Below are positions 1-53,607 of a stretch of DNA of 64,000 nucleotides, one piece after another. Both the position numbers and the translations under genes were made by a program. Origin of the DNA: Candidatus Iainarchaeum sp. (GTDB lineage Archaea; Iainarchaeota; Iainarchaeia; Iainarchaeales; JAFCCJ01); contig JBDRHK010000015.1 in assembly GCA_043816965.1 (NCBI GenBank), positions 3,548-67,547 on the forward strand. Direction: 5' to 3'. The notes under the pieces are model-generated. The model was not told the DNA's origin. It saw only the letters and a program-made list of their open reading frames with translations, and made no database searches. Position 1 is the stretch's first letter. Each line of letters starts with the position of its first letter.

Positions 1-282
1 CACGCAGTGCACATCAACAGTAACCCCGGTCGCAAAATCATACCTGAATGCCCTTGCACAGTAACCATATGCTCCTGTTAATGGGGGAGGGATTCCTCCA
101 CCGGCAGGTCTCGTATAAAAAGAAACCATTGCAGCATCAATTGCCTGCTGCCTTGTGCTTTTGGCGGCCTCAACATCTGCCTTTTCAACAAGGTAAAGGT
201 TTGCATAGGCGGCCGCAAGAATAACAACCACAGCTATTGCAAACATGGCGTCAACACTGAAAGCAAAACCTTTATCAGACAT
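1..282 (-). CDS. Pilin-like protein with class III (prepilin-type) signal peptide; C-terminus lies beyond the window edge
   Basis: Absent from the ORF track because there is no stop in the window. Hand translation from ATG (282-280): MSDKG/FAFSVDAMFAIAVVVILAAAYANLYLVEKA... This is a short charged leader, then Gly, then about 20 hydrophobic residues. The ATG overlaps the stop of ORF 275..916 (ATGTCTGA). Confidence 0.55.
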   Translation of the reverse strand, partial: MSDKGFAFSVDAMFAIAVVVILAAAYANLYLVEKADVEAAKSTRQQAIDAAMVSFYTRPAGGGIPPPLTGAYGYCARAFRYDFATGVTVDVHCV

Positions 283-916
283 TCTTCCACACCTTTAGCG
301 TTATTGTCCCCTGCTCCAAAGGGCAACCTAAACTGTCATTGTCCCTAATGCAATTATGGTATAACTCTTTTTTGAATATCCACTCCTCAAACCCTGGGCC
401 TTGTGTGCCATTAAGAAAAACAACATCCCTTGTCGATGAATACACATTGCTTGCGGACCCGTCAAAAATAGCTCCGCATTCATTTGCAGTCAGGTTTAAT
501 TCAGCAGTGATATTGCCAGAAACTGAACCATTTCCAGTAATATTGCAGGAATAGTCAGATGGAATCCCCAATTTTTCCTTTGTTATTTCTAATTCCGGGG
601 GAGGAGCCGTGAAAAGAGGAATGCAGCCCATCACAGGCGCAAGAGAGGTAAGCGTACCTGCAAAATCGCGTCCTGCCATTCTGCAGGAAAAATATTCATT
701 ATCTGTCGCAAGAAAGGAAGGCTTGCTCATAAGGATAAGTGTGGCGGTCTCCCCAACTGAATAAAGTTCGTTATTGATTTCCGCCTCCCTTTGGTTGTAT
801 TCCTGCAACTCCATAAACTGAAGCATCAGCCCAATTGCAAGAATTATGATTGTGAGGGAAAGGATAAAATCCAATGAAAAAATCTGGCCTTTTTTATTCA
901 ACATATCACCCAACAT
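275..916 (-). CDS. Pilin-like protein (class III signal peptide)
   Basis: N-terminus MLGDMLNKKG/QIFSLDFILSLTIIILAIGLML: basic leader, G/Q junction, acidic residue near +5/+6, hydrophobic helix. Overlaps neighbouring genes within the pilus operon. Confidence 0.6.
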   Translation of the reverse strand: MLGDMLNKKGQIFSLDFILSLTIIILAIGLMLQFMELQEYNQREAEINNELYSVGETATLILMSKPSFLATDNEYFSCRMAGRDFAGTLTSLAPVMGCIPLFTAPPPELEITKEKLGIPSDYSCNITGNGSVSGNITAELNLTANECGAIFDGSASNVYSSTRDVVFLNGTQGPGFEEWIFKKELYHNCIRDNDSLGCPLEQGTITLKVWKNV

Positions 917-1364
917 CCACCGTTTCTCCGCATTTTATTGGAAAGGTTCCATTAAGGGTCGTTGTCTCCCTTGTTACAGCAACAGCCAGTTCCTCCGGGG
1001 CATCACCATAAATATTTCCCGCATCATCAAAATCAAAATTCATTGTCAATTTGTTGCCGGCATAATTTATCTCACAATCCAATGCCCGTCTCTCGCCAAT
1101 AAGAATTAGTTTTGGCACCGAATACGTAATATCAACAGTACTGGTGATTTCTGCCCCTGTTCCCGCAGTAAAAGACTGCGAAAGCTCCTCATTCAAGGTG
1201 TAAATCCTTGCAACCTCGTTTAAAATTGCCCTTCCCTGGGAACGTATTGAAATCGCCTGCTGGCTTTCAGTGACATCATCCATTAAAATTGCCATTCCCT
1301 GCACAAAAAGCATTGCCACCAAAATGGTTAATGTCAAATCAATGCTTACCTGACCCCTCTGCAT
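906..1364 (-). CDS. Pilin-like protein (class III signal peptide)
   Basis: N-terminus MQRG/QVSIDLTLTILVAMLFVQG matches the [KR]G/Q-x-S-x-[DE] plus hydrophobic-helix pattern shared by the locus. Confidence 0.6.
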   Translation of the reverse strand: MQRGQVSIDLTLTILVAMLFVQGMAILMDDVTESQQAISIRSQGRAILNEVARIYTLNEELSQSFTAGTGAEITSTVDITYSVPKLILIGERRALDCEINYAGNKLTMNFDFDDAGNIYGDAPEELAVAVTRETTTLNGTFPIKCGETVDVG

Positions 1365-2582
1365 TCAATCACCATAAAGAATTGCTTTTCCCGCAATATT
1401 AATCAGCTCAGGAACAAGATCTCTTCCGTTAATCCTCTGCAATCCCCCTGATGCGCAGGCCCTCTCCCCAAATTCCTTTACAGCATCAACCCTGACCCCT
1501 GGGCCATTTATCAGGATAGGGAGAGGGTCGCCTGAATGTGCCTTAAGTGAGCAGGGAGTTGAATGGTCCCCTGTAACCGCAATCACCGTATTCTTAAGTC
1601 CCCTTAATTCACCAATCGCCAAATCATCCTTCTCAATAAACTTCATTTTGCCCCTGCAATTTCCATCCTCACCCAAAGAGTCAGTTCCCTTTACATGCAG
1701 GAAGATGAAATCGTATTTATTCAGGGCTTTTTTCGCCTCCCTGAACTTTGCCCCGGCATTTGTTGCAGGGGTACCTGTCGCCCCCTTAACATCTATCAAA
1801 TCCATTCCCAAAAATCTGGCAACTCCCCTGTAAAGTCCCCCGCCTGCAATGCACCCTGCCTTCAGCCCAAACTTTTTCTCAAAACTTTCCAGTTTCGGGA
1901 CAAATGCCGCGCCCCTTATGAGGACATAGTTTGGAATAAGTTTTCCGGATTTTTTCCTTTTTGCATTTTCAGGATTTTTGGAAACCACATCCCTAGCCTT
2001 AGCCAGGAAGTTGTTCATAACCTTTGCGGTAAATTTCGCCTGCCTTGTATTTTTGGTGGGCCTTACGGCAAGAACATTCTCCCCCGCAATATGGGGGTCA
2101 TTGTCGGCCACATCCCCCGATAATCCTTTTCCCCTTGCAATAATTCCCATGCGGTGCGCGGTGCCTGGCTGAACCATAAATTTAATCCCGTTAATTGCAA
2201 TCCCATCCAGTTTCTTTGCATAGGGGGAAGTGTCACCAATCCTCCCTGCTCTCCGGTCTATTATTTTCCCGCCTTTATCCACGGTCGCAAGGTTTGCCCT
2301 GAAACAAACATCTCCCTTTTTTGGGTTCATCCCAATTCCCAAAACCTCAAACAGGCCCCTCCCTGCATAATACTTTTCAGGAGGAAAGCCAAGAATTGAA
2401 AGATGTGCTGTGTCACTCCCAGGCCTTACTCCCCTTCCGATTGTGTCCATTAAGCCAGTGATTCCATTTTTTGCAAGTTTGTTAAGGTTTGGGGTTTTCG
2501 CTTTCTCCAAAGGAGTAAGGCCCCCGAATTCCTTAACCGGCCTATCCCCGAGACCATCCAGAATTACAAGTAAAATCTTCAT
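1365..2582 (-). CDS. apgM: 2,3-bisphosphoglycerate-independent phosphoglycerate mutase, archaeal type
   Basis: MKILLVILDGLGDRP..., GSDTAHLSILGF and TGDHSTP motifs, 405 aa, typical of archaeal ApgM (alkaline-phosphatase superfamily). Ends with TGA. Confidence 0.9.
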   Translation of the reverse strand: MKILLVILDGLGDRPVKEFGGLTPLEKAKTPNLNKLAKNGITGLMDTIGRGVRPGSDTAHLSILGFPPEKYYAGRGLFEVLGIGMNPKKGDVCFRANLATVDKGGKIIDRRAGRIGDTSPYAKKLDGIAINGIKFMVQPGTAHRMGIIARGKGLSGDVADNDPHIAGENVLAVRPTKNTRQAKFTAKVMNNFLAKARDVVSKNPENAKRKKSGKLIPNYVLIRGAAFVPKLESFEKKFGLKAGCIAGGGLYRGVARFLGMDLIDVKGATGTPATNAGAKFREAKKALNKYDFIFLHVKGTDSLGEDGNCRGKMKFIEKDDLAIGELRGLKNTVIAVTGDHSTPCSLKAHSGDPLPILINGPGVRVDAVKEFGERACASGGLQRINGRDLVPELINIAGKAILYGD

Positions 2583-2602
2583 CAGAACCGATATTAATTA
2601 AA

Positions 2603-2968
2603 TCAAACTACTATAAATTCTTGTTGCTTTCCCCCAGAATCAAATGCAGCGATGGATTCCAGGTCATATGGATATGCTGCAATAAGATGGAAATCCCCGA
2701 ATTTTGTAAAACTGCTTAAATCCGCCATTGAGGGATATGCATTGGGGGATGGGTGGGAATGGACACTCCCCATTACCCTGGAATCTATGGGGATAAGCCA
2801 GCTCTTTATTGCGGTGAAATTTCTTCCATAAGTTGCGGGAACCACGACCAATTCATCAATAATGCCATTTTTCTTATCCCCGCCAAGAAGGGAAAAGAAC
2901 TCGTTAGGATAGGTATTGTGAGAAGCAATAATTATTGATTCTATTGTTTCCTTTTTAATTCGGTACAT
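2603..2968 (-). CDS. JAMM/MPN+ metalloprotease domain protein
   Basis: NEFFSLLGG (Glu) and HSHPSPNAYPSMADL (HxHx7Sx2D JAMM motif). The track ORF extends to 3022, but MYRIKKE (ATG at 2968) is the more plausible start. Confidence 0.75.
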   Translation of the reverse strand: MYRIKKETIESIIIASHNTYPNEFFSLLGGDKKNGIIDELVVVPATYGRNFTAIKSWLIPIDSRVMGSVHSHPSPNAYPSMADLSSFTKFGDFHLIAAYPYDLESIAAFDSGGKQQEFIVV

Positions 2969-3015
2969 CGGAACCCCAAATAATAAGGGCAGAAAAATTA
3001 AAATACCGCAACAAA

Positions 3016-3354
3016 TCAGCAATTTTCCAATTGGGAAGGAATTCCGTTTGGGTATTCCTTGGCAGAGCAGACTTGGTTTTTAACATACCAACAGCAACCC
3101 ATAGCATAGCTGGCTCCAGCTGGGGCGAAATCACCTAAATCTGATGGATCAGCCTTACAGTTATTTTCATCGCCACCATATGTATTAATACATGATATTT
3201 TTGCGCCAGACAGCCGGCTAGGGGGATCGGGATTGATCGGAGGTAATATCGAAATTAGCACCACCGAAACAACAACTACGACAACCAATGTCATCAGAAC
3301 AGCCGCACCGACAATCAAAATCAACTTCTTATCCATGCAAACGAATAAGCCCAA
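3016..3354 (-). CDS. Cysteine-rich pilin-paralog lacking the prepilin cleavage motif (membrane-anchored)
   Basis: The C-terminal ~60 aa align with pilin 7861..8193: SC[IL]NTYGG...LGDFAPA..Y..GCCW....VCSAKEY........C, with six conserved Cys and a C-terminal Cys. The N-terminus MDKKLILIVGAAVLMTLVVVVVV has no G/Q-x-x-x-E site. Confidence 0.6.
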   Translation of the reverse strand: MGLFVCMDKKLILIVGAAVLMTLVVVVVVSVVLISILPPINPDPPSRLSGAKISCINTYGGDENNCKADPSDLGDFAPAGASYAMGCCWYVKNQVCSAKEYPNGIPSQLENC

Positions 3355-3377
3355 ACTACTATTTATTTATGCCTGAT

Positions 3378-4568
3378 TCAAATTCCCAGGTAAAAAACTA
3401 TCACCGGCACCATCAGGAACGCCATGCAATTTGTCCTTTTTGTCCCTGTGCAAATTGTGAGCAACCCAACAGCTGCTGAAACAACCAGCAAAAGAATTCC
3501 AACAACCCCGCTAAACCAATAGACCAAAAAGAAAAGTAAAATAATTATTATTTTGTTAATTAGGGAGTAATCGAATCTCGAAAGATTCTTTGCAACAATT
3601 ATTGCCATCACCTCAGCGGCGATTGCCCCCACCCCAATCGCAATCAAGATAACCGCAATGAAAATCAGCAGGGTATTCCAGTCCAGTTTAACCAATTCCT
3701 TGACCGCAACAGCTGCTCCTGTCCTTGTTTTCCCAAGCAGGAAAAGGATAAAGAAACTGAAAATTATATTGGTTGTATTAATCCCGCCCAGCATTACAAG
3801 ATAGCCCTTGCTGCTCATTTTCCCCTTTAGTTTCCCTGCCATGAATGCTGCCTGGCTTGCCCCGACCCCGGGCAGTATGGAAACAAAACCCCCGGCCAGT
3901 GTGCTAAGAAGGGAATATTTTAAGACAGGATTTAATGGATATGAATCCTTTTTCACCAATTGTTTCCTCAATCTTGTTTTCACCCTTAAGGAGTTGAGCA
4001 GCGTGGATAGGCCAAAAAAACCAGTAACCAACGGAAATATTGGATTGCCTATTGCAAGGAAGTTCAGTGAAATTAATCCAATTACTGAGGAAAGCGCTAC
4101 AATAGCAAAACTCCACAGGATTTTATTCTGTTTCTTCTGCCAGAAAACCATAAAGAGAAGAATCAGGATAAGGATGAACGGAACAAACTGGTAAATTATT
4201 TTTCCCCATTCCTCAATGAAGAGAAAGTAAACAGGGGAAATCAGCACCGCAACAACACCCCCAAAAACCCCGCCAATGATTGTGAATTTTATCGCCGAAA
4301 CCCCCTCCCCCTTAAGCAGTAATTTATGCCCGGGAAGAACCGAAAGAAAAGTGCTTTCTTCCCCTGCCCCCAAAAAAACACTTGGGATGAAATCAACAAA
4401 TGACTGCACTGTGCTCATTGCGACAATCATCACCGCAACACCCAGGCCAAATTCCCCGAAAAGGCTGACCGCAACAAGGGCAACAGTGTTTGCATGGATT
4501 CCTGGAACCAGGCCTGTGGCAACTCCAAAAAAACAACCTACAAAAATAAAAAACAGAATCTCAATCAA
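3378..4568 (-). CDS. Polytopic membrane protein, DUF112/TctA-like
   Basis: About 10 or more hydrophobic segments. N-terminal GLVPGIHANT and the later LPGVGASQAA resemble the duplicated TctA/DUF112 motif. Assigned from memory of the family only. Confidence 0.5.
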   Translation of the reverse strand: MIEILFFIFVGCFFGVATGLVPGIHANTVALVAVSLFGEFGLGVAVMIVAMSTVQSFVDFIPSVFLGAGEESTFLSVLPGHKLLLKGEGVSAIKFTIIGGVFGGVVAVLISPVYFLFIEEWGKIIYQFVPFILILILLFMVFWQKKQNKILWSFAIVALSSVIGLISLNFLAIGNPIFPLVTGFFGLSTLLNSLRVKTRLRKQLVKKDSYPLNPVLKYSLLSTLAGGFVSILPGVGASQAAFMAGKLKGKMSSKGYLVMLGGINTTNIIFSFFILFLLGKTRTGAAVAVKELVKLDWNTLLIFIAVILIAIGVGAIAAEVMAIIVAKNLSRFDYSLINKIIIILLFFLVYWFSGVVGILLLVVSAAVGLLTICTGTKRTNCMAFLMVPVIVFYLGI

Positions 4569-4923
4569 CGCTTTCCACTTCCTCGGCGATGATTTCCAGC
4601 TGCCCCTTATATTTCTTAACCACGCCCCTGATTCTCACAAATTCATTTTCCCTTACCCCCGCCAATTCCCTGACAGTTGGGGAGAAAACAACAACCCTCA
4701 AACCCCCTTCCCCCCCGAGTGAAAAGAACAATGTGTCATTTGCGAAAAACCTTTCCCCAACCTTTCCCTGGGAAATAACTCTTTTGTCTAGCCAGCTTTC
4801 ATCAATTTCCCCGGGGGAGATTTCCAATGGCTCCTCCATAAACGCCAGAAACAGGAGCAGGATAATTCCTGCAAGGGAAACCAGGAGAGAAATCTTTTTC
4901 ACCAGAAAATCATTGAATTCCAT
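4561..4923 (-). CDS. Membrane-anchored OB-fold protein
   Basis: N-terminal TM helix, then a ~70-aa beta-rich region ending FVRIRGVVKKYKGQLEIIAEEVE, typical of tRNA_anti-like OB folds. Confidence 0.45.
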   Translation of the reverse strand: MEFNDFLVKKISLLVSLAGIILLLFLAFMEEPLEISPGEIDESWLDKRVISQGKVGERFFANDTLFFSLGGEGGLRVVVFSPTVRELAGVRENEFVRIRGVVKKYKGQLEIIAEEVESVD

Positions 4924-4956
4924 AGCTTATTTGGAAAAGAAAAGAAGATAAATAAT

Positions 4957-4970
4957 TCGTCAATTGACGA
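4957..4970. promoter_or_regulatory. Perfect 14-bp palindrome TCGTCAATTGACGA abutting a TATA-like box upstream of gene 4561..4923
   Basis: Read directly. On the minus strand the order is palindrome, ttatttatc (4947-4955), then ATG at 4923 about 23 nt later. The same arrangement occurs at 34283 and 31935. Confidence 0.45.
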
Positions 4971-4973
4971 ATA

Positions 4974-5567
4974 TTAGATTTTCTCTATTTCGACAGGCCT
5001 GGGCCCCAAAAGGCCCCTTTTAAGCCTAAGCTTAACCCTTTCCCCTTTTTTGAATTTCAAGCCTGATTTTATATTGTGCTTTTTCGCAACAGTCCAGGAC
5101 CTAAGATCAAATTCTGTTTCCACAAGGCAGTTCTCCCCGTCACTCATAATAACCTTTCCAAAACCATAGTTTCTTCTGAAAACCACCCAGAAAATTGCCA
5201 TGAAAATAAATAGCAGAATAATAAGCGCAAAAAAGAAAAAGCTCTGGCCTGAAAATTCAGGGGCAAAAACCGGCCCAAGCCAGCTCAGTTGGGCAATAAT
5301 AATCAAACCGACAAAGAAGTAGAGGTATGCGAAAAAATCCTCCTTGAATTCCTCCCGCCCCTCTGTTGCAAGCTCATAAAGGAGAATAACAATCAGAATT
5401 AATTCCGCAATCAAAAATAATTCATAAGGAATCAAAAATTTGAGAAAAACCCCTGCAATAATAACAAGCAGCAGAATCTGCATCTTGTAAACAAGATATG
5501 TGCGGTGGCTGAAATTGCCGACATTTTTCTCCAGGAATTTTTCAATCAAGCCAATCAGCTCGGGCAA
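4974..5567 (-). CDS. Hypothetical membrane protein
   Basis: Four or five hydrophobic helices followed by a soluble basic C-terminal domain. No recognisable motif. Confidence 0.4.
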   Translation of the reverse strand: MPELIGLIEKFLEKNVGNFSHRTYLVYKMQILLLVIIAGVFLKFLIPYELFLIAELILIVILLYELATEGREEFKEDFFAYLYFFVGLIIIAQLSWLGPVFAPEFSGQSFFFFALIILLFIFMAIFWVVFRRNYGFGKVIMSDGENCLVETEFDLRSWTVAKKHNIKSGLKFKKGERVKLRLKRGLLGPRPVEIEKI

Positions 5568-5980
5568 TTAGTGCTAGAAGGAATATTGTCCCTATCTGTG
5601 CCGTTAATGCACACATGCACAGTCTCATATTTGCTCCTCAAAATAATCTCGTCCCGAAGATAATCTTTGAATGCGGTGGTGTCTAGGTTCATGCTGCCCC
5701 CGGAAAGAATTAAATCCAGCTTAATTGTGTCATCGCCTACAGTCTCAAAAAGTATTTCCTCAATGTACTCCATAGAATCAATCTGGCTCAGTTTGTCGAT
5801 TGTTTTTTCCTTTGCAATTATCAGCGCAATTGTTGAATCTTTTATGACCACGTAATTGGAAAGAATCATGGTAACCAAACCTATTACCGCCGCGAAAACG
5901 ATAATCAGCTCATAGCTGACCTGGCCGGAATTACTAAGCCAATTTGACAGTGGTTGTAGAACCATCTTTTTCAACCTCAA
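5555..5980 (-). CDS. Pilin-like protein (class III signal peptide)
   Basis: ...LSNSG/QVSYELIIVFAAVIGLVTMIL. Overlaps the upstream gene. Confidence 0.6.
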   Translation of the reverse strand: MRLKKMVLQPLSNWLSNSGQVSYELIIVFAAVIGLVTMILSNYVVIKDSTIALIIAKEKTIDKLSQIDSMEYIEEILFETVGDDTIKLDLILSGGSMNLDTTAFKDYLRDEIILRSKYETVHVCINGTDRDNIPSSTNCPS

Positions 5981-6488
5981 GAGTTACCACTATTCCGGCA
6001 TAATTATCCATATTGTCTATTTTTAATCCGCCTGAGCAGTTAACACTGCTACTATCTAATAATAAGTCAAACACCTTGGCACATTTTTCATTATCCCCAT
6101 CAATGTCATTAATGCAGGCAGACGGGGCCGAGTAAGCATTCAATAAAATCCCGTCCAGCGCAACCTGGAAGCAGATCCCATTCACGCAAGTTGCGCCAAT
6201 ATCGCTTAACTGGCAGGTTAGGATGGTGTTCCCAGGCACAAAAAGAGTAATGGTCCTTTTATTTTCCCCGGGAGCAACGCTCACAGCATCAATGGTATTT
6301 GCAAGCTTTTCCGCGGCAAATCTCGCCTGGCCAATCCTTGCGGTTTCCTTGCCGCTTGCGGCGGCAATTGTAAGCGAAGGGTTAACGACAGTCTGAATGA
6401 ACAGGGCAATAATCATCACAAGCATAATTATTTCAATAGAGGCCTGACCCCGCCTGCCTAAATTTTGAAAAAAGGAAATAGAACCCAT
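5934..6488 (-). CDS. Pilin-like protein (class III signal peptide)
   Basis: ...NLGRRG/QASIEIIMLVMIIALFIQ. The start overlaps the end of the peptidase gene. Confidence 0.6.
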   Translation of the reverse strand: MGSISFFQNLGRRGQASIEIIMLVMIIALFIQTVVNPSLTIAAASGKETARIGQARFAAEKLANTIDAVSVAPGENKRTITLFVPGNTILTCQLSDIGATCVNGICFQVALDGILLNAYSAPSACINDIDGDNEKCAKVFDLLLDSSSVNCSGGLKIDNMDNYAGIVVTLEVEKDGSTTTVKLA

Positions 6489-7669
6489 AAAACATCCCCT
6501 ATCAATTGAAGCAACAAATAACCAATCAATATTCCTGGCACAAATGCTGTTGTTCCCTTCACCTCTATCTTTTTCGGAATTAAGCCCTTATTCGCAAGTT
6601 CCTTAATCTCTTTTAATTGCTCCCCTGTAAGGCCGCCGGCGCTTGAGGAACTTGCAACAACCCTTGCCCCTGGCTTAATCGCCTGGTTAAGGGCATCCAA
6701 ATTATTATCCATTAACTGCTTTATAAGTGTTCCTATAGAGGCCCCTTCCAGAATCTCTATTTTTCCGCCCTTTTCAACAATGGTTTTTAGCGGAATCTCC
6801 CCCTCCTCCAGGTCCCTGACATCTTTCTCCATTCCCAAAAGCCTTGCCAATGCCTTTTTTGGCCTGTGGTGCACAACAATTTCAATTGTGAGAGTAATGG
6901 TGAGAATGATAACAAAAACTACGGCAAAACTAAATATTGCGCTTGGCACAGAAAGGTAGAGCGCGAAGGCCAACAGAATGGCCGCAAGGAATTTCTGCAG
7001 GAGATAGCTTATTTTTTTAAGCCCAAGCAAGCCAATCACTGTAACAATTGGCAGATGGAATATTTCAGGAACTCCCAGGAAAATAAGAAGGGTTGCTGTC
7101 CCAACAATCGCCGCAGTTGTTATAACAATGCCGTTAATTTTTCTTTTCACCAATGCAACAACAACCCCCTTCAAATTCATTTTCTTTATCATTTCCCTTC
7201 TATCAATCATGCGCTTTAATGTTATTGCAGTCACCCATGGGACCATTGAAATAATGCTGAAAACGAAAAGCGAAAAAGGGAAGATTGGCTCTGAAACAGA
7301 CGCAAAATTAAAAGTAATGCCGAGAAGTGAAAGGCTTTCTAAACCAATTAAATCCCTGAGGACACCATGGTTTACTGTGTTGATTGTGGCAAGCCCTGTC
7401 ATCAGCTTAACATCGCCCCCCGCCCATCCCCCTGCCTTGTAAAGGAGCAATGAGCCAACGGCGGTGGCGAAGGTTACGGCGCCGGTTACAATGATTATTG
7501 AAGGGTCATTCGCAAGCAGGGACCTGATTCCCTGCAGAATCAGCCCGCCAAAAATAAGTGAAAATGTGAGTTTATTGGAAACAATCCTTTCCCGTAAATC
7601 GGTAAATGTGGCGATAATAAGGGCGATTATTGAAATTATGAAGAAGAAAATAGGAAAGCTGATAGGCAT
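6458..7669 (-). CDS. A24-family prepilin/preflagellin peptidase (FlaK/PibD/EppA-like) with an extra ~105-aa soluble domain
   Basis: Two catalytic Asp contexts: TFTD(24)LRERIVSN and GGWAGGD(86)VKLM (GxGDxK). Multiple TM helices. A soluble segment at aa ~267-373 precedes the last TM helix. Confidence 0.8.
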   Translation of the reverse strand: MPISFPIFFFIISIIALIIATFTDLRERIVSNKLTFSLIFGGLILQGIRSLLANDPSIIIVTGAVTFATAVGSLLLYKAGGWAGGDVKLMTGLATINTVNHGVLRDLIGLESLSLLGITFNFASVSEPIFPFSLFVFSIISMVPWVTAITLKRMIDRREMIKKMNLKGVVVALVKRKINGIVITTAAIVGTATLLIFLGVPEIFHLPIVTVIGLLGLKKISYLLQKFLAAILLAFALYLSVPSAIFSFAVVFVIILTITLTIEIVVHHRPKKALARLLGMEKDVRDLEEGEIPLKTIVEKGGKIEILEGASIGTLIKQLMDNNLDALNQAIKPGARVVASSSSAGGLTGEQLKEIKELANKGLIPKKIEVKGTTAFVPGILIGYLLLQLIGDVLWVLFPFFKI

Positions 7670-7673
7670 GTTA

Positions 7674-7844
7674 TCAGCCCATCAGAGATTCAATAGTTTC
7701 CGACCTGAATGAAAGAATTTTTGCCTGCGCAACATTCGCAATCGAAGCCAAGTTCATGGTTACAACCGAAGCTACCAAAACCAGCACCAGCACAAAGCCG
7801 ATGCTGATAAGGTACTCCAATGAAACTTGTGCCCTATTGTTCAT
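7674..7844 (-). CDS. Small (56 aa) pilin with class III signal peptide, not in the ORF track
   Basis: Hand translation: MNNRA/QVSLEYLISIGFVLVLVLVASVVTMNLASIANVAQAKILSFRSETIESLMG*. 171 nt including the stop. Confidence 0.65.
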   Translation of the reverse strand: MNNRAQVSLEYLISIGFVLVLVLVASVVTMNLASIANVAQAKILSFRSETIESLMG

Positions 7845-7860
7845 GCTTTACACATCATTC

Positions 7861-8193
7861 TTAGCAATCTGTAAGTGCGGGAAGTGGTGTAGCATATTCT
7901 TTTGCAGAACAAACCTTATCTATAGTGTCCCAACAGCAACCAGCAGCGTAGTCTGCATTAGCAGGTGCGAAATCACCCAAAGCTTTGTCTGTTGCGTCAC
8001 CCAAACAGCCAGTGCCGCCTACAGCTCCCATAGTACCGCCATAAGTATTCAAACAGCTTACTTTCGCAGCACTAATTCTTGCCGGTTTGTCGTCACTTAT
8101 GGTTGTCAGCAATACTATAACCACCACAGCAACAAGCACAGCACCGCCAATCAGCAGCAGATACTCAAGTGCACCTTGTCCTTTTCTATCCAT
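7861..8193 (-). CDS. Candidate major pilin, cysteine-rich C-terminal domain
   Basis: MDRKG/QGALEYLLLIGGAVLVAVVVIVLL, with six Cys in the C-terminal domain. A near-perfect Shine-Dalgarno (minus-strand AAGGAGGATGA; tcctcc at 8201-8206) lies 7 nt before the ATG, with TATA-like boxes upstream. Confidence 0.75.
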   Translation of the reverse strand: MDRKGQGALEYLLLIGGAVLVAVVVIVLLTTISDDKPARISAAKVSCLNTYGGTMGAVGGTGCLGDATDKALGDFAPANADYAAGCCWDTIDKVCSAKEYATPLPALTDC

Positions 8194-8278
8194 ATGTTCA
8201 TCCTCCTTTTGTTGGTTATAAATATGATATAATCTATCTAAACATATCCATTCTAGTATTTAAACCTTCTTCCGGCAT

Positions 8279-8443
8279 TTATCCAGTACTTTCCTCAAGC
8301 GCTTCGCCTGAAGTATCCTGGAGCTCCCGGCCAAGTGTTTTTAGATAAAAACCAACTGCCGCTGCAACTGCCAGAACCCCCCCTAAAATAAGGAGCATTT
8401 CAAGCGAACTTTGCGCCCTTTCCTCAAAAATCAATCCTTTCAT
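8279..8443 (-). CDS. Small (54 aa) pilin-like protein with class III signal peptide, not in the ORF track
   Basis: Hand translation: MKGLIFEERA/QSSLEMLLILGGVLAVAAAVGFYLKTLGRELQDTSGEALEESTG*. The ATG overlaps the stop of 8440..9414. Confidence 0.6.
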   Translation of the reverse strand: MKGLIFEERAQSSLEMLLILGGVLAVAAAVGFYLKTLGRELQDTSGEALEESTG

Positions 8444-9414
8444 GAAATACCACCCATTATTGACCTTGAACCAAACAATACAACTGTAAAGCAGATGTAT
8501 GCCACTAATAAGAGGAGTGGGAAGTATATAATACTTTTGCTCATCTTTCCATCTCTCATAAGTGAAATCATTATGCTTGCCGCAAGGGTTTCTATAAGAA
8601 CATATATCTGGATAAGCAGGGTTATGTCCTCCCTTGCCTTATCAGCAGCTTTGATTGCGGCATCATCTGCAACACCCTGGGCCGCAAGTATTAGGAAGCT
8701 TACAACAGTTGAAATAAAACCAAAGATTGCGGGAGCAACCAATGAGCCTGCAGTTACTAAGAAGATTACCTGCAGGCCTGTTTTTGACCTTCTTTCCTTG
8801 TTTATTCTATGTGTGGATCTGACATCTTCCGCAATCTGCTCAAGGATATCTGCCAATCCAGCACCTGCCTTGACAGAGTCAACAATTATTGTGACAGTTC
8901 TCTGTATAAGCCTTGAATCAATCTTGGAAAGAACTTTCAGCGAATTCTCGAAGTTTTCCCCCTCCTCAAGCTTCCTCAGGACATAGCCCATCTCCATTTT
9001 CAGTGCCCCATATTCGGATGCGGCAACTTCCCTCAGGGCATATTCATATGTTCCCCCGGCCCTCAATGTGTCGGCCATCTGCCTCAGCGCATCAGGCAGG
9101 GTTTCCTCAATTTCATCAATCCTTTTAAGTGCGTTCAGCAGGGGAAAGCCGATTGTAAGGTCAATGGCAACTATAAAAACTACTAATGGCAGGCCAGCCA
9201 GAACGCTCGTAAGAGAATCCATTTCAAGATAGTTTATCAGGGCATCAGAACCTGCCCAGGAACCGACAACAAGAAAAATCGACAAAAAAATGGAAAACAA
9301 AATCCAAAGGAAAGGGTCAAACCTGAATCCGCTCCATGCAAGCATTTTTGAGTAATATTTCAAAAAGCCTATGCTGTTCAGGACAGGAATCCTTTCCATC
9401 AGTCTCAATGCCAT
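8440..9414 (-). CDS. Type II secretion system F-domain membrane protein (TadC/FlaJ-like)
   Basis: T2SSF-like cytoplasmic helical domain (LPDALRQMADTLRAGGTYEYALREVA...AGAGLADILEQIAEDV) flanked by TM helices. Confidence 0.75.
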   Translation of the reverse strand: MALRLMERIPVLNSIGFLKYYSKMLAWSGFRFDPFLWILFSIFLSIFLVVGSWAGSDALINYLEMDSLTSVLAGLPLVVFIVAIDLTIGFPLLNALKRIDEIEETLPDALRQMADTLRAGGTYEYALREVAASEYGALKMEMGYVLRKLEEGENFENSLKVLSKIDSRLIQRTVTIIVDSVKAGAGLADILEQIAEDVRSTHRINKERRSKTGLQVIFLVTAGSLVAPAIFGFISTVVSFLILAAQGVADDAAIKAADKAREDITLLIQIYVLIETLAASIMISLMRDGKMSKSIIYFPLLLLVAYICFTVVLFGSRSIMGGIS

Positions 9415-9418
9415 AACA

Positions 9419-10570
9419 TCACACCGTCGGTTGCGCTATTTTTAGGTAATAAACAAGTAAAATCATTATCCCTGGCATAAGCACCAGGTAGAATATTCCC
9501 ATCATTGTGGGGTTAAGCCCAAGGCCGCCAACATTCGGCAGTGGGGAGTTTGTTATTCCCCCAATAACGGCAACAAACACAGGAATAACAATTGCCATAA
9601 AGATAAATATCACCCCGAAGAAATTCATCTTCTCCCCGAAATCCCTCATCGCAATCCTGAGCTCAAAAGAAACATCCTCGGCAATCTTGTTCATTATGTC
9701 CGAGAGGTTTCCCCCTGTCTTAAGCGCACGTATTATGTGGAGCAATGCGCTTCTTAAGGATTTGGATTCTGTCCTCAGTGCAAAGTGCCTTAGGGCAACT
9801 TTAGTGTCTGTTCCCTCCTCAACCTCGGAAATGGTCCTTGAAAATTCCTCTGAAAGGACGCCATAATCAGAAACAGCGATTGCCTGCAGTGTTTTGTAAA
9901 GCCCTATTCCTGCCTTTAATTCTGTTGACATATGCCTGAGGGCAAAGGGAAGCTCAACACTGATTTCCTTACCCCTCTTCATTGCCTTACTTTTTGGGTT
10001 GAGGAAGCAGATAATGGCTGCAAATAGGAACACAAAAATTGCAATAATCGGCGAAAGCAGCAAAATTAAGTTGTTGTCAAGGAACCAGCCAAGTCCTGCA
10101 AACAAAAGCAGCACAAAGAATGCAGCAATCACTGAAACAGAGGTTGAAATCGCAAGATATTGCTGGATGCTGTATTTCATGTTTGCGCTGTAAAGGTAAT
10201 AGCCTAACTCCCCCGCCCCCGGCATTCTTCTCAGAATCTTTGAAATGAACTTTAAGGGAAGCTCAAACAAAAGATAAACCCTGCCCAAGCTCCTGATTGT
10301 GGGGGAACTGAATTCAGTTAAATCCTCAATTCCCTGCACCCTTATTTTTGACAGCTGGCTTTCGGCAATTATTCCCCGCAGTTCGCTTAATCTGCCGCCA
10401 ACTTCCTCAAATTCAACTCCCTGATCCCGATATTTTTTTTTCATCCTGGTTACAATCTTGTCCACCGCATCAAGGTCGATTGATTCCTCATCCTTTTCAA
10501 TCGCGCCGAACTTTTTGGCCGTTTTCTTTTTTTCTTCAACCTGTTTTCTCAGATCATCAAGTTCAGGCAT
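9419..10570 (-). CDS. Type II secretion system F-domain membrane protein (TadB/FlaJ-like)
   Basis: [26 protein letters not shown]...[16 protein letters not shown] plus TM helices. Paired with 8440..9414 like TadB/TadC. Confidence 0.75.
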
Positions 10571-13500
10571 ATTCTCCCCTCTTCTTTAGCAGGTGGTCCT
10601 GGCAGGCTTTTGATACCTCTTCTATAGACCTTATCTTCTTGTCAACAAGGCTCTTAAGAAACCTTTCCCTGTCCTTAAGTTCGGCATCAATCTGCTTTTT
10701 TGACAGTCCGGTGTATTTTTCAAGTGTCCTGAGGTATGCGCTGGAGAAATTGGACCGAATGAGTTGATCAGTTATTGCATCCCTTTCGAAAAGGGTTTGG
10801 GTTGTTGATTTGCCCTCCAAGACCCCGCCAACCTCCGCCATCTCGGTAATTCTTCTAATGGTGCCTTTTTTCCTGTCATGAAGCCTGTGTTCTATAAGCA
10901 CGAAATCAAGCCCTGAAAGCATCATCTTAGGGACATTCATCGGAGGGCTTGTGACCCTTACTAGTGCCTCTTGGGGAGAGTTTGCGTGGACAGTCCCCAT
11001 GCAATTTGAAACAAACAAGCCATTGGCAATGTAATTGTGGTTATCTTTAACAGTCAGGTCGTAAACATATCCCTCGAATTCCCGGTCCTTCACTTCAACT
11101 ATTTCCTCGAACCTGAAATCAGATTCAACTAATTTTAAAAGTTCCTTTCCAATGGAATTTTCGGAAGTTATCATTGCAATTTTTTCCAGTTGCCCTCTCG
11201 ACGGATTTCTTTGGTTAGTTTCGTATGCCTCAATCGTTGACCTTGTTTTTGCATTCATAAAAGATGCCAATTCTGTTTGCGTTAAGTAACAATCGCTCCT
11301 CGCCCTTTTGATTAAACCGGAAATTTTCGGGAACAAATCCATCGAATTTTTTGAAACTTTCAATAGTCCTGCTAGTTTTTGCCTTTTTGCAGAATGCCTG
11401 AAGCCGATTTTCCCCTGGTATTTTTCAAGGTTATCCTTACCATAAATTGAAATTCTGTAGTAAGGGCCAATATTTCCTTTGCCGTCTTTTTCCTGAATAT
11501 TTGTTGAGGAGTGAATCCCGAATCTCTGGAGAATCATCGGAAGTTTTTTTGCCAGGTCGGGGTTTGATGTTGAGAATTGGATTGAGTTTGAATGCAGATT
11601 CACATGGGCCTCAGCATCGAAAAACCCGCATAATAATTCCCCGATATTTGACTCACTTGAACTTAAAGCCTTTTTCGTTATTTTGAATTTTTTTGTTTTA
11701 TTCCCTAGAGGAATATCATACTCCTCTTCAAAAAGTTTAACCAATTTTTTGTCAAAAACATTTACTCTGGAATAGTTTCCATAGTTTTTGACCGATACCT
11801 TGTTTTTGGTGGTTTTTCCAATCCCGTCCGCAAAATTTTCAATGACTGATTTTTCGTTGTTCACAAACTGAATCCCTTCGCTGTGAATGTGCCCATCTCC
11901 ATAAATCAATCCTGCCAAGTAGGGATGTTTTATTTTTTCCGTGGCACTAATCGTGATTGCCTTTGGAAATGCAATGAAATCCCCCCCCTTTGCCTCTTCA
12001 GAATTTATTTCCTGAATGCCATTATGTATCCTGTAAATCGGATGGTCTTTTGTCAAACAAATGCGTTTTCCTGAGCGGGTTTTTATTATTTTCATCATTT
12101 CTTTTGTTTTCTTCTTCCAGACCCGCGTAATTGGCCTGTTTTCAATTTTCAATGTCTTTTTGTTAAAGCTTGGGACAAGCAGTTCTTCACTTAATTCAAC
12201 AAATTTAAATTCTCCGTCGCTTATTGGACATGTTTCATTAAATTGCCTTTCAACAAAATCCCCAATTGCCTCAATATTCCCGTCTGAAAACTGAATTAAT
12301 GTTTCTCCATTTAATGCGCCTTCATGGCCGGTATTCATGGCGGTAAAAAGCGAGAATGCCTCATCATGCCTTATCTCACCAACTATAATTCTGTCAGGCC
12401 TCATCCTGAGGGAATTTTTAGTCAAAATATCCATTGTTATTTCCCCAGTTCCCTCCATTCCCGGGGGCCTTGATTCAAGCCTTATCCAGTGTTTTAAGGG
12501 AAGGTTCAGTTCTGCAGTGTCCTCAATTGAAACAATCCTTTCAGAAGCAGGAATAAATGAGGCAAGAACATTCAAAGTTGTTGTTTTCCCTGAACCGGTT
12601 CCTCCCGCAATCAGAATGTTTGCGGGCTTTACCCTCAATCCCTCAACACAAAGCCAGAGGAATGCAGCGGTTTCAAGGTTTACTGTATTGAGGTTCAGCA
12701 AATCAACTATTGACAACGGGTCTTCCCTGAATTTCCTTATAGTGAGGGTTGCACCACTTACAGATATGGGGGGGATGGTCGCATTAACCCTGCTCCCATC
12801 AGGGAGTCTTGCATCCAGCAAGGGGGCGGAAATATCAACCCTTCTTCCCACCTGCCTTCCTATCCTGTTTACGAGGTCCTCTATCTCGGACTCGGAAAAG
12901 AATTCAATATTGGTTTTCATCATTTCATATTCCCTGTGGAAAACATAAACCGGGCGTTTTGCGCCAATAACCATAATTTCCTCAAGCCTGTCATCCTTTA
13001 TCAGGGAATCAATAAGCCCATATCCGACCATCTCCCTCACAACAGCATCTGCATAAAACTCAAATCTTCTAGTTGGAATCCTTAACTCTTTCGAGGTCTG
13101 CAGGATTTCCATTATTTTCTGCTGGTAAACACTTCTCCTCTCTTCAGGGTCACGGATTTTGTAGGGGATTATGCTGATTATTCTTGTTGCAGCTTCCTTT
13201 ATTGTGTTGATTATTGTTTTATCCCCCTTCGTCGGCCTTGGCACAGGGGTATAGTAGTACATCAGGGGTTGGCCAGGAATTTCATATATTGTCGTATTTC
13301 CGTAAGATGCAACCTTAATTTTCTTTACATTTTCCATCTCCTTTTCGATTGTTGATTTATCCGGTTCTTCCTCTCCTTCTTTGGCGGGAATTCCCTCCAC
13401 CGAGGCAGGCCCCTTAGGCACTTCAGGGGATTTTCTCCTCTCAAAAATGTTCATAATCCCCTCCTTCCTGCTCTCAATTTCAGGAGTCTCCTCTTTTACC

Positions 13501-13682
13501 GGGGCAGCCACTGGCTCTTGGCGGGCCAAAAATTCATCTGCAGAAGGACCATTGGCTATAGGTTGCGAAGTTGCAGGGCCAGTTTCTATAGTAGACCCCT
13601 CTACCTTAATCCCCTTTTTTTCCTTTGCCTTTCTAATCAGATCATCCAAAGGGTTAGACATATATATCCCATTAATCAACAA
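10563..13682 (-). CDS. Type IV pilus/secretion ATPase (VirB11/FlaI/KlbA family) interrupted by an intein
   Basis: Walker [33 protein letters not shown]. The conserved AMNTGHEG...CMGTVHANS box is split by 438 aa. The extein alone would be ~601 aa with a low-complexity acidic N-terminal extension. Confidence 0.9.
11004..12317 (-). mobile_element. Intein (438 aa) with LAGLIDADG homing endonuclease and HTH insert; Ala1 ... Ser-Asn / Cys+1
   Basis: Boundaries by hand: GHEG|[10 protein letters not shown]... and ...[13 protein letters not shown]|CMGTVHAN. Block [18 protein letters not shown] motifs [13 protein letters not shown] and [13 protein letters not shown]. Visibly more AT-rich than the flanking extein. 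Confidence 0.85.
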
Positions 13683-18813: not shown

Positions 18814-19776
18814 CTACTTCTCAGGCTTCATAAACTGCGCCAGCAGCGCCTCTAATTGAATCCTCTCGTTCGCCCCTTCAACCAACCTAAAATTATACTC
18901 CCCAATTGTATCAATCAGGTCAATTTTCCTCTTGTCATCAATAACCGATTTATCAAGGTTTACAAGTTCGCGGTACATCTGAACAATTATGTCCTCCCCA
19001 CTCAGCCCATACTCGTAGAGCAATTTATCCAGCTTGTCCCTTGCCTCCATGAATTTCTTCCCGAGCGCAAGTTCGATTAATTCCTTAACCTCTTCAGGCC
19101 TTGCGCGTGAGGAAACACTGTAAACAATTTTCTCAGAAATATCCTTGTCAAGTGTTGAAGCTGCCTGCAGTATATTCACGGCCTTCCTCATGTCCCCCTC
19201 TGAAACATAATTGATGGCAACCAATGCATCATTTGCAATTTTAATTCCCTCAATTTTCGCTATCTTTTCCAGTCTTGCATCAACATCTTTAGATGAAAGC
19301 GGCCTGAACCTGAAAATCACGCACCTGGACTGAATAGGGTCAATTATTTTGCTGGAGTAATTCACATTCAGTATAAACCTGCAGGTTTTTGTGTATTTTT
19401 CCATAGTCCTTCTCATGGCCTGCTGGGCCTCAGGAGTTAAAGCATCTGCCTCATCAAGGAAAATAATCTTGAATTTAGTGTTAAATGCAAGGGTCCTTGC
19501 AAAATCCTTGATATTTTTCCTTACAATCCCTATTCCCCTGTCGTCAGAGGCATTCAATTCAAGGAAATTCTGCCCAAAATGCTCGCCAAAAAGTTCATTA
19601 GCAAGCGCAACAGCTGCAGATGTCTTTCCCACCCCTGCAGGGCCTGAAAACATCATGTTCGGGACATTGCTGTTGGAAACATATCTGCTAAGCCTTTTAG
19701 TAATTTCTTCCTGGCCGATTACCTCATCCAAATTCTTTGGCCTGTATTTTTCAACCCAAGGCAGCTCTAAATCCAT
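18814..19776 (-). CDS. rfcS: Replication factor C small subunit
   Basis: [26 protein letters not shown] (Walker A), FLDEADALT (Walker B), SRC motif (IQSRC), 320 aa. Confidence 0.9.
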
Positions 19777-31216: not shown

Positions 31217-31837
31217 TCAGAATATTGGCTGCAGGATTAAAAAATAAATCCACGGGGCAAACACACCTATTGCGGCAATCGCCATTGCCACCCCCCAAAC
31301 AGGAATGCTCCATGTAAAAACCTTGGAGCCATCCAAAGGCCCAATAGGGAGAAGATTGAACAGGGCGAGGAAGAAATTTATCATTGCCGAATAAGAGAAA
31401 ATGTCTGACACCAAATCCGTCGGCTTAAACACGGCAAGCAGGATAAGGAACATGAATGCCACAACAATATTTGTGGCAGCACCGGCAACAGAAATTAGCC
31501 CATTTTGCTCCCTTGTTATATGGCTGCCAGATATGTAAACTGCGCCAGGTGCGGCAAACAAAAACCTTCCAAAAGTTATCAGCGGAAGGAGTATTGTGAA
31601 AAGCAATCCTGTTGTCCATGCCCTGTATTCTGCGTTAAGCCCATAATATTTGGCAACCTGCCTGTGCGCAAGCTCATGCAAAATAAAGCCAGTTCCAACC
31701 CCGACCAGTGCGATGGGAAGTTTTTCCCCAAAATCACCAAAATTCAGAAATTCCGACAGCACCCATGCAAACCCAAGGCTGATGGTTAACCATGAAATGA
31801 TTAAATCGTTTCTTTCCCTGGATTCCAAAACAACCAC
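31217..31837 (-). CDS. M50 (site-2 protease) family membrane metalloprotease
   Basis: HELAHRQVAKYYG (HExxH) and NLLPIGPLDGSKV (NxxPxxxLDG) within TM helices. Confidence 0.8.
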   Translation of the reverse strand: MVVLESRERNDLIISWLTISLGFAWVLSEFLNFGDFGEKLPIALVGVGTGFILHELAHRQVAKYYGLNAEYRAWTTGLLFTILLPLITFGRFLFAAPGAVYISGSHITREQNGLISVAGAATNIVVAFMFLILLAVFKPTDLVSDIFSYSAMINFFLALFNLLPIGPLDGSKVFTWSIPVWGVAMAIAAIGVFAPWIYFLILQPIF

Positions 31838-39815: not shown

Positions 39816-39891
39816 ATGTTTAAATTACTTTTCACGAAGGGGACTCAATTCTTTTTTAATATTGTTTTTACAACTATTAAATAGGTACAAT

Positions 39892-53554: not shown

Positions 53555-53607
53555 AGATATGCCCTATCTTGTTGATAAGGGGCAGCCTCCAGAAAATTAA
53601 CGTTCAA

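Follow-up and report, generated by a model that had tools for sequence, protein, structure and literature searches.

An Epd-like type IV pilus operon of an Iainarchaeota archaeon with embedded OB-fold and TctA-like genes and a possible role in DNA uptake

The closest described relative of the genes reported here is the Epd (EppA-dependent) pilus of Methanococcus maripaludis, which has been classified as a "clade 1" type IV pilus (Makarova et al. 2016, PMC4858521) and as "System 1" among the archaeal type IV filaments (Sivabalasarma & Albers 2026 preprint, bioRxiv 10.64898/2026.04.22.720090). We analyzed a stretch of 64,000 nucleotides (nt) from Candidatus Iainarchaeum sp. (contig JBDRHK010000015.1, positions 3,548 to 67,547; hereafter "the window"), of which positions 1 to 13,682 carry an array of genes for a pilus of this Epd-like kind together with genes for an OB-fold (oligonucleotide/oligosaccharide-binding fold) protein and a TctA-like membrane protein. 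System 1 has already been noted in some DPANN archaea (bioRxiv 10.64898/2026.04.22.720090; PMC4858521). Epd-like pili are the archaeal sister of the bacterial Tad/Flp pili. A platform protein split into two genes is a hallmark of Epd-like and Tad systems (Denise et al., PMC6668835), and the EppA substrates of M. maripaludis show the same features as the pilins described below, i.e., Gln at position +1 and Glu at position +5 of the mature protein, but without Tyr at position +6 (PMC3875500).

The Epd pilus has also been linked to natural transformation. In M. maripaludis, the genes MMJJ_13020 (OB fold, one transmembrane [TM] segment) and MMJJ_13030 (TctA-like, 11 TM segments) are adjacent, and deletion of either abolishes natural transformation (Fonseca et al. 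2023, PMC10133366); insertions in eppA, in epdJ/K/L and in several pilin genes gave the same transformation defect (PMC10133366). For transformation of Methanoculleus thermophilus, a pilus of the type IV-like kind and a TctA homolog are essential, and no clear OB homolog was found in that organism (PMC10133366). Archaea have no identifiable ComEC homologs and the passage of DNA across their membrane is unresolved; Fonseca et al. proposed the TctA-like protein as the archaeal DNA transporter (PMC10133366).

We read the Iainarchaeum region as the main type IV pilus operon of an Iainarchaeota (Diapherotrites, DPANN) archaeon, of the Epd-like ("clade 1"/"System 1") kind, with a coupling to DNA uptake through the embedded OB-fold and TctA-like genes, and we put the probability of this reading at roughly 0.6. 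The assignment to type IV pili is firm, and it agrees with a first-pass annotation (made by a model from the DNA letters), which had likewise proposed machinery of the type IV pilus kind and a large number of pilin-like genes. We hold with moderate confidence that the OB-fold and TctA-like proteins may work with the pilus as a DNA-uptake route. This part of the reading is put forward because the corresponding OB/TctA pair and the Epd pilus are genetically required for transformation of M. maripaludis.

All genes of the array are on the minus strand and form a single, tightly packed run. From the ATPase gene to nt 1 all gaps are ≤85 nt, and, with the most plausible start codons, many neighboring genes overlap by 4-47 nt. 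Pfam searches identified a T2SSE ATPase, two T2SSF proteins, Peptidase_A24 with Arc_PepC, apgM, Prok-JAB, TctA (DUF112), an OB fold and DUF2101; apart from the DUF2101 gene, which the first-pass annotation had not named, the gene content, order, strand and frequent overlaps are as described there. Scans for tRNA genes and Rfam families were both empty. The features of the array are listed in Table 1.

Table 1. Features of the pilus array on the window (a slash marks the predicted cleavage site; aa, amino acids; SD, Shine-Dalgarno sequence)
Feature	Position	Strand	Supporting match or motif
Secretion ATPase precursor (T2SSE/VirB11 family)	10563..13682	minus	Pfam T2SSE, E = 5.5e-40
Class 2 (KlbA-type) intein, 438 aa	11004..12317	minus	Pfam Intein_splicing, LAGLIDADG_3, HTH_3
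Platform protein 1 (TadC-like, one T2SSF)	9419..10570	minus	Pfam T2SSF, E = 5e-20
Platform protein 2 (TadB-like, one T2SSF)	8440..9414	minus	Pfam T2SSF, E = 1.3e-15
pilG, short pilin, 54 aa	8279..8443	minus	predicted cleavage RA/QSSLE
Largest intergenic spacer of the array, 85 nt	8194..8278	minus	TATA-like box TTTAAATA (8257-8264), GGAGG SD (8202-8206), upstream of pilF
pilF, candidate major pilin, 110 aa	7861..8193	minus	predicted cleavage KG/QGALEYLLLIGGAVLVA; mature start QGALEY
pilE, short pilin, 56 aa	7674..7844	minus	predicted cleavage RA/QVSLEY
EppA-like class III signal (prepilin) peptidase, 403 aa	6458..7669	minus	Pfam Peptidase_A24 and Arc_PepC
pilD, pilin-like, 184 aa, 6 Cys	5934..6488	minus	predicted cleavage RG/QASIE
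pilC, pilin-like, 141 aa	5555..5980	minus	predicted cleavage SG/QVSYE
DUF2101 membrane protein, ~4 TM segments and C-terminal domain	4974..5567	minus	Pfam DUF2101, E = 1e-13
Membrane-anchored OB-fold protein, 120 aa	4561..4923	minus	Pfam PF01336, E = 1e-6
TctA-like (DUF112) polytopic membrane protein, 396 aa	3378..4568	minus	Pfam TctA (PF01970), E = 7e-44, full model length
Cys-rich pilF paralog	3016..3354 (likely start ATG 3336, MDKKLILIVGA)	minus	BLASTP to pilF, 45% identity, E = 6e-26
Small JAMM/MPN metalloprotease, 121 aa	2603..3022 (likely start 2968)	minus	Pfam Prok-JAB, E = 4.5e-9
apgM, archaeal cofactor-independent phosphoglycerate mutase	1365..2582	minus	NCBIfam PRK04024, 498.5 bits, above cut-off
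pilB, distal pilin-like, 152 aa	906..1364	minus	predicted cleavage RG/QVSID
pilA, distal pilin-like, 208-213 aa	275..916 (start 901-904 or 916)	minus	predicted cleavage KG/QIFSLD
pil0, distal pilin-like, truncated by window edge	1..282	minus	predicted cleavage KG/FAFSVD

Relatives of the locus were collected by a peptidase-alignment scan of species-representative genomes, which gave 283 relatives, with Methanobacteriota forming the tail of the list. The 80 loci that were fetched come almost entirely from metagenome-assembled genomes (MAGs) of Iainarchaeota/Diapherotrites and include the complete genomes AR10 (CP010424) and CP064981. At peptidase identities of 27-40%, the same gene order recurs, i.e., threonyl-tRNA synthetase (ThrRS), ATPase, TadC1, TadC2, three short pilins, peptidase, two mid-size pilins and DUF2101, followed by OB, TctA, JAB, phosphoglycerate mutase and three distal pilins. 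Because this order recurs in dozens of related species, the class III motifs of the pilin-like genes are conserved features rather than chance matches. In AR10 and CP064981 a single further class III-like gene comes after the pil0 ortholog (~123-125 aa), and the array then stops at a convergent gene; therefore, roughly 1.3 genes are missing on the left side of the window, in line with the earlier statement that the locus runs past nt 1.

Pilin-like genes were sought with a regular expression for class III signals ([KR][GAS]-x-x-[SAT]-x-[ED] followed by a hydrophobic stretch), which matched 8 times in the 64-kb window as compared to a mean of 0.04 matches in shuffled sequence; two of the 8 matches are from a second cluster (33.6-34.3 kb) and one is a chance match inside the peptidase gene. 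Eight open reading frames (ORFs) of the array, i.e., pilG, pilF, pilE, pilD, pilC, pilB, pilA and pil0, have a class III-type N-terminus. Gln at +1 and an acidic residue at +5 or +6 were found in nearly all orthologs, family by family, across dozens of species. When compared to the Pfam family Class_IIIsignal (PF04021, DUF361/UPF0333; gathering cut-off 23.7 bits), two of the nine pilin-like ORFs scored above the cut-off (pilF, 32.4 bits; pilG, 27.1 bits), and pilE (20.1 bits) and pilC (13.1 bits) gave matches below it; the other four class III-type ORFs and the Cys-rich paralog either gave no match or lay outside the scan.

The ortholog consensus of pilG is KA/Q.S.E (Q+1 in 37/37 and E+5 in 36/37 orthologs), and Q+1 and Y+6 were found in all 68 pilE orthologs, which have mature lengths of 50-55 aa. 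Both pilF (KG/QGALEY) and pilE (RA/QVSLEY) carry the Flp motif G/xxxxEY, with Tyr at +6 in 58/59 pilF and 68/68 pilE orthologs. Among the mid-size pilins, a pilD ortholog follows the peptidase in 77/84 loci (consensus KG/Q.S.EF). The cleavage site of pilC is atypical because position -2 is Ser and not Lys/Arg; the consensus of its orthologs is KG/Q.S.E, with Q+1 and E+5 in all 35. Of the distal genes, pilB has the ortholog consensus G/Q.SFD and its position is kept in AR10 and other relatives, while the pil0 family, with an ortholog consensus of KG/F.F..D and full-length orthologs of ~123 aa, has Phe and not Gln at +1. The pilA protein has 6 Cys and 6 N-x-S/T sites and belongs to a family with 205 cluster representatives at E ≤ 1e-3 (Q+1 and D+6 in 37/37 orthologs). 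No Pfam family was found for pilA; DUF7287 and DUF7288 each matched 1 of 60 members, weakly. Its AlphaFold model (mean predicted local distance difference test [pLDDT] 84, predicted template modeling score [pTM] 0.78) has a 57-residue N-terminal helix (residues 3-59) and a beta-domain with conserved cysteines.

We consider pilF the best candidate for the major pilin because the gene is preceded by the largest spacer of the array with its TTTAAATA box, has the only perfect GGAGG among the array genes, has a strong SD in 49/54 orthologs and combines an invariant N-terminus with a variable C-terminus. The TATA-like box was present upstream of 16/54 orthologs, and the spacer may act as a promoter. 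In the 54 orthologs, the first ~20 mature residues are almost invariant and the C-terminus is variable, with a bimodal length distribution, i.e., proteins of 56-61 aa without Cys and proteins of 81-138 aa, nearly all of them with an even number of 4-8 Cys; the C-terminal head of pilF itself has ~60 aa and 6 Cys. Homologs of pilF numbered 245, mostly from DPANN MAGs, with some named "class III signal peptide-containing protein" or UPF0333. The same ORF, with its strong SD, had been named as a candidate major pilin in the first-pass annotation, and sequence comparison makes it a well-supported one. Tandem copies of these KGQGALEYLLLIGGAVLVA-type pilins were observed in four of the loci from Iainarchaeota and related MAGs.

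The first-pass annotation had counted at least nine class III signal-peptide genes; eight of these stand, and the ninth, the Cys-rich pilF paralog, is not a predicted peptidase substrate because a 6-residue deletion took out GQGALE. The product of this paralog would be signal-anchored or of the Sec type, and the paralog is lineage-specific, as it was found only here and in a relative of 83% identity. All six N-termini quoted at the time (QVSLE, QGALE, QSSLE, QVSYE, QASIE, QVSID) are present. The shared N-terminus of [KR][GA]/Q with an acidic residue at +5 holds for most of the genes, with the exceptions of pilC (Ser at -2), pilA and pil0 (Asp at +6) and pil0 (Phe at +1).

Outside the range covered by the first-pass annotation, a second pilin-like cluster was observed at 31982-34247 (both strands), plus 31217-31837. 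On the minus strand it includes ORFs at 34077-34247 (56 aa, KA/QISVE) and 33663-34076 (137 aa, RG/QLSLEY); four small genes are divergently transcribed, two of them with class III-like N-termini (RG/IFSF and ERG/LIFSLD). A gene for an M50-family peptidase directly adjoins this cluster, and an M50 peptidase also turned up in the M. maripaludis transformation screen (PMC10133366).

The assembly machinery is represented by one ATPase, two platform proteins and a peptidase. The best solved relatives of the ATPase are CpaF of the Tad pilus (E = 3.4e-70, 240 bits), GspE of A. fulgidus (2oap, 213 bits) and FlaI (194 bits). Two adjacent genes, each with one PF00482 domain, encode the platform. The first, which overlaps the ATPase stop codon by 8 nt, aligns to residues 16-252 of 484 of UpsF, i.e., to the N-terminal half of two-domain archaeal platforms, and the second aligns to residues 215-462 of 465 of FlaJ and 282-479 of 484 of UpsF, i.e., to the C-terminal half. 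The peptidase is polytopic (~8-10 hydrophobic segments) with a soluble Arc_PepC domain; its match covers positions 6-329 of the 334 positions of the EppA model, and Asp24 and a GGD86 motif are invariant in the 8 homologs that a word-indexed search returned (the same kind of search returned 3 proteins for pilD). By these features it appears to be a long (~9 TM) peptidase of the EppA type with two catalytic Asp residues, which we call EppA-like as it is below the equivalog cut-off. Sequence searches of the PDB with both platform proteins and the peptidase returned no match.

The DUF2101 gene, which overlaps pilC by 13 nt, appears to belong to the pilus system because its adjacency to an EppA-type peptidase recurs in Methanobacteriota: the gene for the EppA-type peptidase of Methanobacterium sp. 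UBA8 has a DUF2101 gene (E = 2e-44) immediately after it, and 3 other Methanobacteriota loci show this adjacency too. DUF2101 is thus a probable accessory protein of EppA-type systems, and we suggest it as a new peptidase-associated component. A gene for phosphoglycerate mutase was also observed ~3 kb upstream of the EppA-type peptidase in three Methanobacteriota loci; this recurrence is probably a coincidence, though an odd one.

The OB-fold protein has a TM segment at aa 5-33, an acidic linker and a C-terminal OB domain of the nucleic-acid-binding type that is predicted to be extracellular. PF01336 matched 47 of the 58 members of its family, and in comparisons with PDB profiles the family resembled the nucleic-acid-binding OB folds of TiaS, YhaM, RPA32 and aspartyl-tRNA synthetase. 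Eight of the 58 family members (best E = 1.8e-4), but not the window protein, also matched below threshold the family DUF4131 (cut-off 31.6 bits), which we take to be the N-terminal TM and OB domain of ComEC; we treat this resemblance as a lead only. The TctA-like protein has ~11-12 hydrophobic segments and its gene overlaps the OB gene by 8 nt. Both families were then followed by HMMER profile iteration in the 60 evaluable loci (non-duplicate loci with ≥4 kb downstream of the peptidase), counting genes within 6 kb downstream of the peptidase. OB was detected in 43, TctA in 40, both in 35 and at least one of them in 48 of these loci, and the OB and TctA ORFs of the relatives typically overlap or abut.

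Two further genes are embedded in the array. The JAMM protein shows an H-x-H-x7-S-x2-D motif (HSHPSPNAYPSMAD) in its translation, and a JAB homolog was found downstream of the peptidase in 44/60 evaluable loci. The stop codon of apgM abuts the ATG of pilB (gap 0 nt), and apgM is probably a true housekeeping gene that is co-transcribed; ThrRS, apgM and possibly JAB would be passengers of the operon. One Iainarchaeota locus (listed under L002/L016) has a bacterial-type cofactor-independent phosphoglycerate mutase instead of apgM in the slot after JAB. The earlier description of housekeeping genes interleaved in the locus is probably right for apgM and fails for at least part of the others, as OB and TctA are conserved inside the operon and DUF2101 is linked to the peptidase.

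In the mechanism that we propose, the ATPase precursor would first splice out its intein, with Cys+1 attacking the N-terminal junction directly, to give an active ATPase of ~600 aa. The peptidase, with DUF2101 as a possible accessory membrane partner, would cut the prepilins after [KR][GA], removing leaders of 4-19 residues and leaving Gln1 and Glu5. An ATPase hexamer on the TadC1/TadC2 platform would polymerize pilF into a Flp-like helix that carries a small, disulfide-bonded and fast-evolving head, and pilG, pilE, pilD and pilC, the distal pilB, pilA and pil0 and one gene beyond the window would serve as minor, priming or tip pilins. Retraction, if any, would use the single ATPase, as no PilT-like gene was found in the window; single-ATPase retraction has been reported for CpaF. 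The external OB domain would capture DNA brought to the surface, and the TctA-like permease may be the channel that conducts this DNA across the membrane.

Several observations weigh against this reading. Prepilin cleavage, filament assembly and DNA uptake in this lineage are steps that we infer. The likeness of the OB and TctA proteins to MMJJ_13020 and MMJJ_13030 is one of domain architecture and adjacency only, not of sequence orthology, and the TctA family consists of (tri)carboxylate transporters in bacteria (PMC10133366). Synteny alone is no proof that OB and TctA function with the pilus because ThrRS and phosphoglycerate mutase are kept in the same array. In 12 of the 60 evaluable loci neither an OB nor a TctA gene was detectable. 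In a divergent, GC-rich clade of Iainarchaeota (nine loci), what comes after the OB gene is an ORF of 320-375 aa for a polytopic membrane protein. This ORF could not be assigned to TctA (the two examples scanned had no Pfam match, and the TctA profile was matched only marginally); either it is a TctA that has diverged very far or it has replaced TctA. In NCBIfam, the peptidase scored 47 bits with EppA (its best match; cut-off 450) and 23 bits with FlaK, both far below the cut-offs, and the top match of the ATPase was the FlaI model with 293 bits (cut-off 550, also far below), with a sub-threshold score of 159 bits for the bindosome ATPase BasE. Of the pilin structure predictions that the first-pass annotation had named as a check, the one for pilA was confident and the one for pilD was poor (pLDDT 42; alignment of 3 sequences), showing only strands after a long helix at the N-terminus, and did not enter the fold searches; the pilA model gave weak fold matches to solved structures, none of them significant to solved pilins. 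Among the Pfam-scanned ORFs of the window there was no secondary ATPase (FlaH/KaiC-like or MinD-like), nuclease or archaeosortase. No DUF2341 adhesin or accessory ATPase of the FleN/MinD or FlaH/KaiC-like type was found among the same ORFs either; these are frequent, not universal, and could sit elsewhere in the genome.

Of the alternatives to an Epd-like pilus coupled to DNA uptake, the one that survives best is a pure adhesion or host-attachment pilus, with DUF2101, OB, TctA, JAB and apgM as unrelated housekeeping genes that are held in place by slow change of gene order in the phylum. The conservation of ThrRS and phosphoglycerate mutase, which are clearly unrelated to pili, in the same array fits this explanation, as do the surface attachment mediated by the Epd pilus of M. 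maripaludis (PMC6668835) and the common dependence of DPANN archaea on cell contact. Against it stand a gene order that is kept at 27-40% peptidase identity, a DUF2101-peptidase adjacency that recurs in Methanobacteriota and the translational overlaps of the embedded genes, be it among themselves or with pilin genes. Moreover, the OB/TctA pair shares architecture and adjacency with a pair that is required, together with the Epd pilus, for transformation of M. maripaludis, and the chance that such a pair lands in a pilus operon is, by a rough estimate for a genome of ~1,300 genes, <1%. Overall, a purely adhesive pilus is the less likely of the two readings. The adhesive function given in the first-pass annotation is plausible as such, yet it is one of two functions shown for the characterized homologous system.

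A second alternative takes up the bacterial transport role of the TctA family: in a bindosome-like or pseudopilus system for nutrient uptake, a short filament or its pilin-like proteins would assist in passing a small solute (a carboxylate) on to the TctA-like transporter, comparable to the class III-processed binding proteins of Sulfolobus. That the type IV filament machineries of archaea are functionalized for substrate scavenging has been proposed in a recent survey, and the sub-threshold BasE match of the ATPase would agree with such a role. The locus, however, has no substrate-binding protein with a class III signal, the partner of TctA is an OB fold of the nucleic-acid type, and the ATPase is nearer to CpaF than to BasE, and we thus regard this explanation as quite improbable. 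That the locus encodes an archaellum for motility can be dismissed, as the FlaI model, although the top NCBIfam match, scored far below its cut-off, Pfam scans across the window detected no domain of an archaellin, FlaH, FlaF/G or FlaC/D/E, the platform, although its proteins weakly match FlaJ, is encoded by two separate genes, the pilins have little length and Gln at +1, and the peptidase resembles EppA more than FlaK.

Taken as a whole, the observation of the first-pass annotation is confirmed in part, since the array and its motifs are real and its ninth class III gene is not, and its interpretation is likewise partly supported. It overlooked the ATPase intein, the likeness of OB and TctA to the transformation pair and the fact that DUF2101 follows an EppA-type peptidase in Methanobacteriota as well.

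The placement inside an Epd-like operon of an OB/TctA pair that matches the Methanococcus pair in domain architecture, kept across dozens of deeply diverged DPANN species, provides a testable and independent argument that the OB-fold and TctA-like proteins and the pilus work jointly. It is also relevant to the question of where DPANN archaea with reduced genomes obtain their nucleotides and genes. It is a tentative further proposal that, in Iainarchaeota, the Epd-like pilus, the extracellular OB protein as DNA binder and the TctA-like permease constitute one co-transcribed DNA-uptake machine that is conserved throughout the phylum. If this is true, the TctA-like protein would be the long-sought functional counterpart of ComEC in archaea, with the OB protein in the part of ComEA or of the N-terminal domain of ComEC; a genome-reduced DPANN cell could scavenge nucleotides as well as exchange genes, and the physical joining of the modules would lend the model derived from Methanococcus genetics independent support from comparative data. 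A literature search found no report of an OB/TctA pair embedded in a pilus operon, although its coverage was incomplete and the result is thus no proof of novelty.

The ATPase gene carries an in-frame intein. The ORF encodes 1039 aa, with a likely start at ATG 13661, and the mature extein would have ~600 aa; the intein-free ATPase gene of the 83%-identical relative is a stop-to-stop ORF of 598 aa with a called product of 592 aa. The intein corresponds to ATPase residues 456-893, contains a LAGLIDADG homing endonuclease and a helix-turn-helix (HTH) domain, and is inserted after NTGHEG and before CMGTVHAN. It reads ALNGETL...TKDH...FVSN/C, i.e., it has Ala1, a T-x-x-H (TKDH) in block B, a C-terminal Ser-Asn and Cys+1. 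A class 2 intein is defined by Ala1, Thr/His in block B, Ser at G:6, Asn at G:7 and Cys+1 (PMC4031507). By these residues, the intein is of class 2 (KlbA) and located at the KlbA insertion site, and it aligns to PDB entry 2jmz (MJ0781, the Mja KlbA intein of Methanocaldococcus jannaschii) with the extein junction included (MNTGHDG/ALAYDEPIYLSDGN). Insertion site, ATPase family, Ala1, block B T-x-x-H, C-terminal Ser-Asn and Cys+1 are the same in both inteins; the intein reported here differs in having 438 aa with LAGLIDADG and HTH, whereas the matched 2jmz chain, junction residues included, has 186 aa.

Approximately 19 of 64 related ATPases have an intein at this same site. In related species, the site after NTGH[DE]G holds either an Ala1 KlbA-type class 2 intein or a different Cys1 "CLT..K" intein, or it is empty (fourteen loci were noted for this site), and it looks like a homing hot spot. 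A further locus (L064) appears to have an insertion elsewhere in the ATPase gene.

Other features of the window lie apart from the pilus genes. At 41101-43560 (plus strand), one ORF has a LAGLIDADG/HTH-like region of ~420 aa in frame with an Obg/YchF-like GTPase, whose own start is apparently MQIGCVGKPSSGKST at approximately residue 421. We considered this ORF as a second intein and rejected it: with its LAGLIDADG part upstream of where the GTPase starts, and with no N-extein, it does not qualify as a canonical intein. At 52532-57148 (plus strand), a LonB-like protease is apparently split into an AAA N-terminal piece (52532-53554), an ORF without Pfam match (54451-55527) and a piece with lid and Lon_C (55727-57148). 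These pieces surround a dip of the GC content to 0.37, and the split may be an insertion or a degraded intein. Genes for replication proteins (small and large subunits of replication factor C, topoisomerase I and Cdc6/Orc1) are located at 18814-19776, 25093-27234, 39769-41019 and 43636-45081. The GC skew changes sign several times in the window, and a replication origin may be located near the Cdc6 gene.

When compared to known systems, the pilus as such is an ordinary representative of a class that has been described before. With the Epd pilus it shares one secretion ATPase, two adjacent platform genes with a single T2SSF each, a long EppA-type peptidase with Arc_PepC and many pilin-like genes, including short, Flp-sized pilins, with short signal peptides that end in Gly/Ala and are followed by Gln +1 and Glu +5. 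It differs in that all components are in one co-directional array of ~14-15 kb, whereas in M. maripaludis the pilin and eppA genes, epdJKL, the major pilin and the OB/TctA pair are at separate loci. Furthermore, pilF and pilE have Tyr at +6 (the Flp motif), which is absent from the M. maripaludis pilins (PMC3875500), the candidate major pilin has a 6-Cys head, the ATPase has an intein, and searches of the window detected neither a DUF2341 adhesin nor an ATPase of the MinD/FlaH-like type.

Bacterial Tad/Flp pili are similar in that CpaF is the best solved relative of the ATPase, the platform is split, short pilins carry G/xxxxEY, and there is a single ATPase and no PilT-like retraction ATPase. 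Conversely, Pfam searches identified no secretin (RcpA), TadZ, TadD, TadE/F/G or TadV-type peptidase in the locus, the cell is an archaeal monoderm and the peptidase is of the archaeal EppA type. The system thus works like Tad but is not a member of Tad. As compared to MMJJ_13020 and MMJJ_13030, finally, a one-TM OB-fold gene is in both cases located immediately upstream of a TctA-family permease with ~11 TM segments, and an Epd-type pilus co-occurs; the Methanococcus pair is located far from the pilus genes, whereas the pair described here is placed between the pilin blocks.

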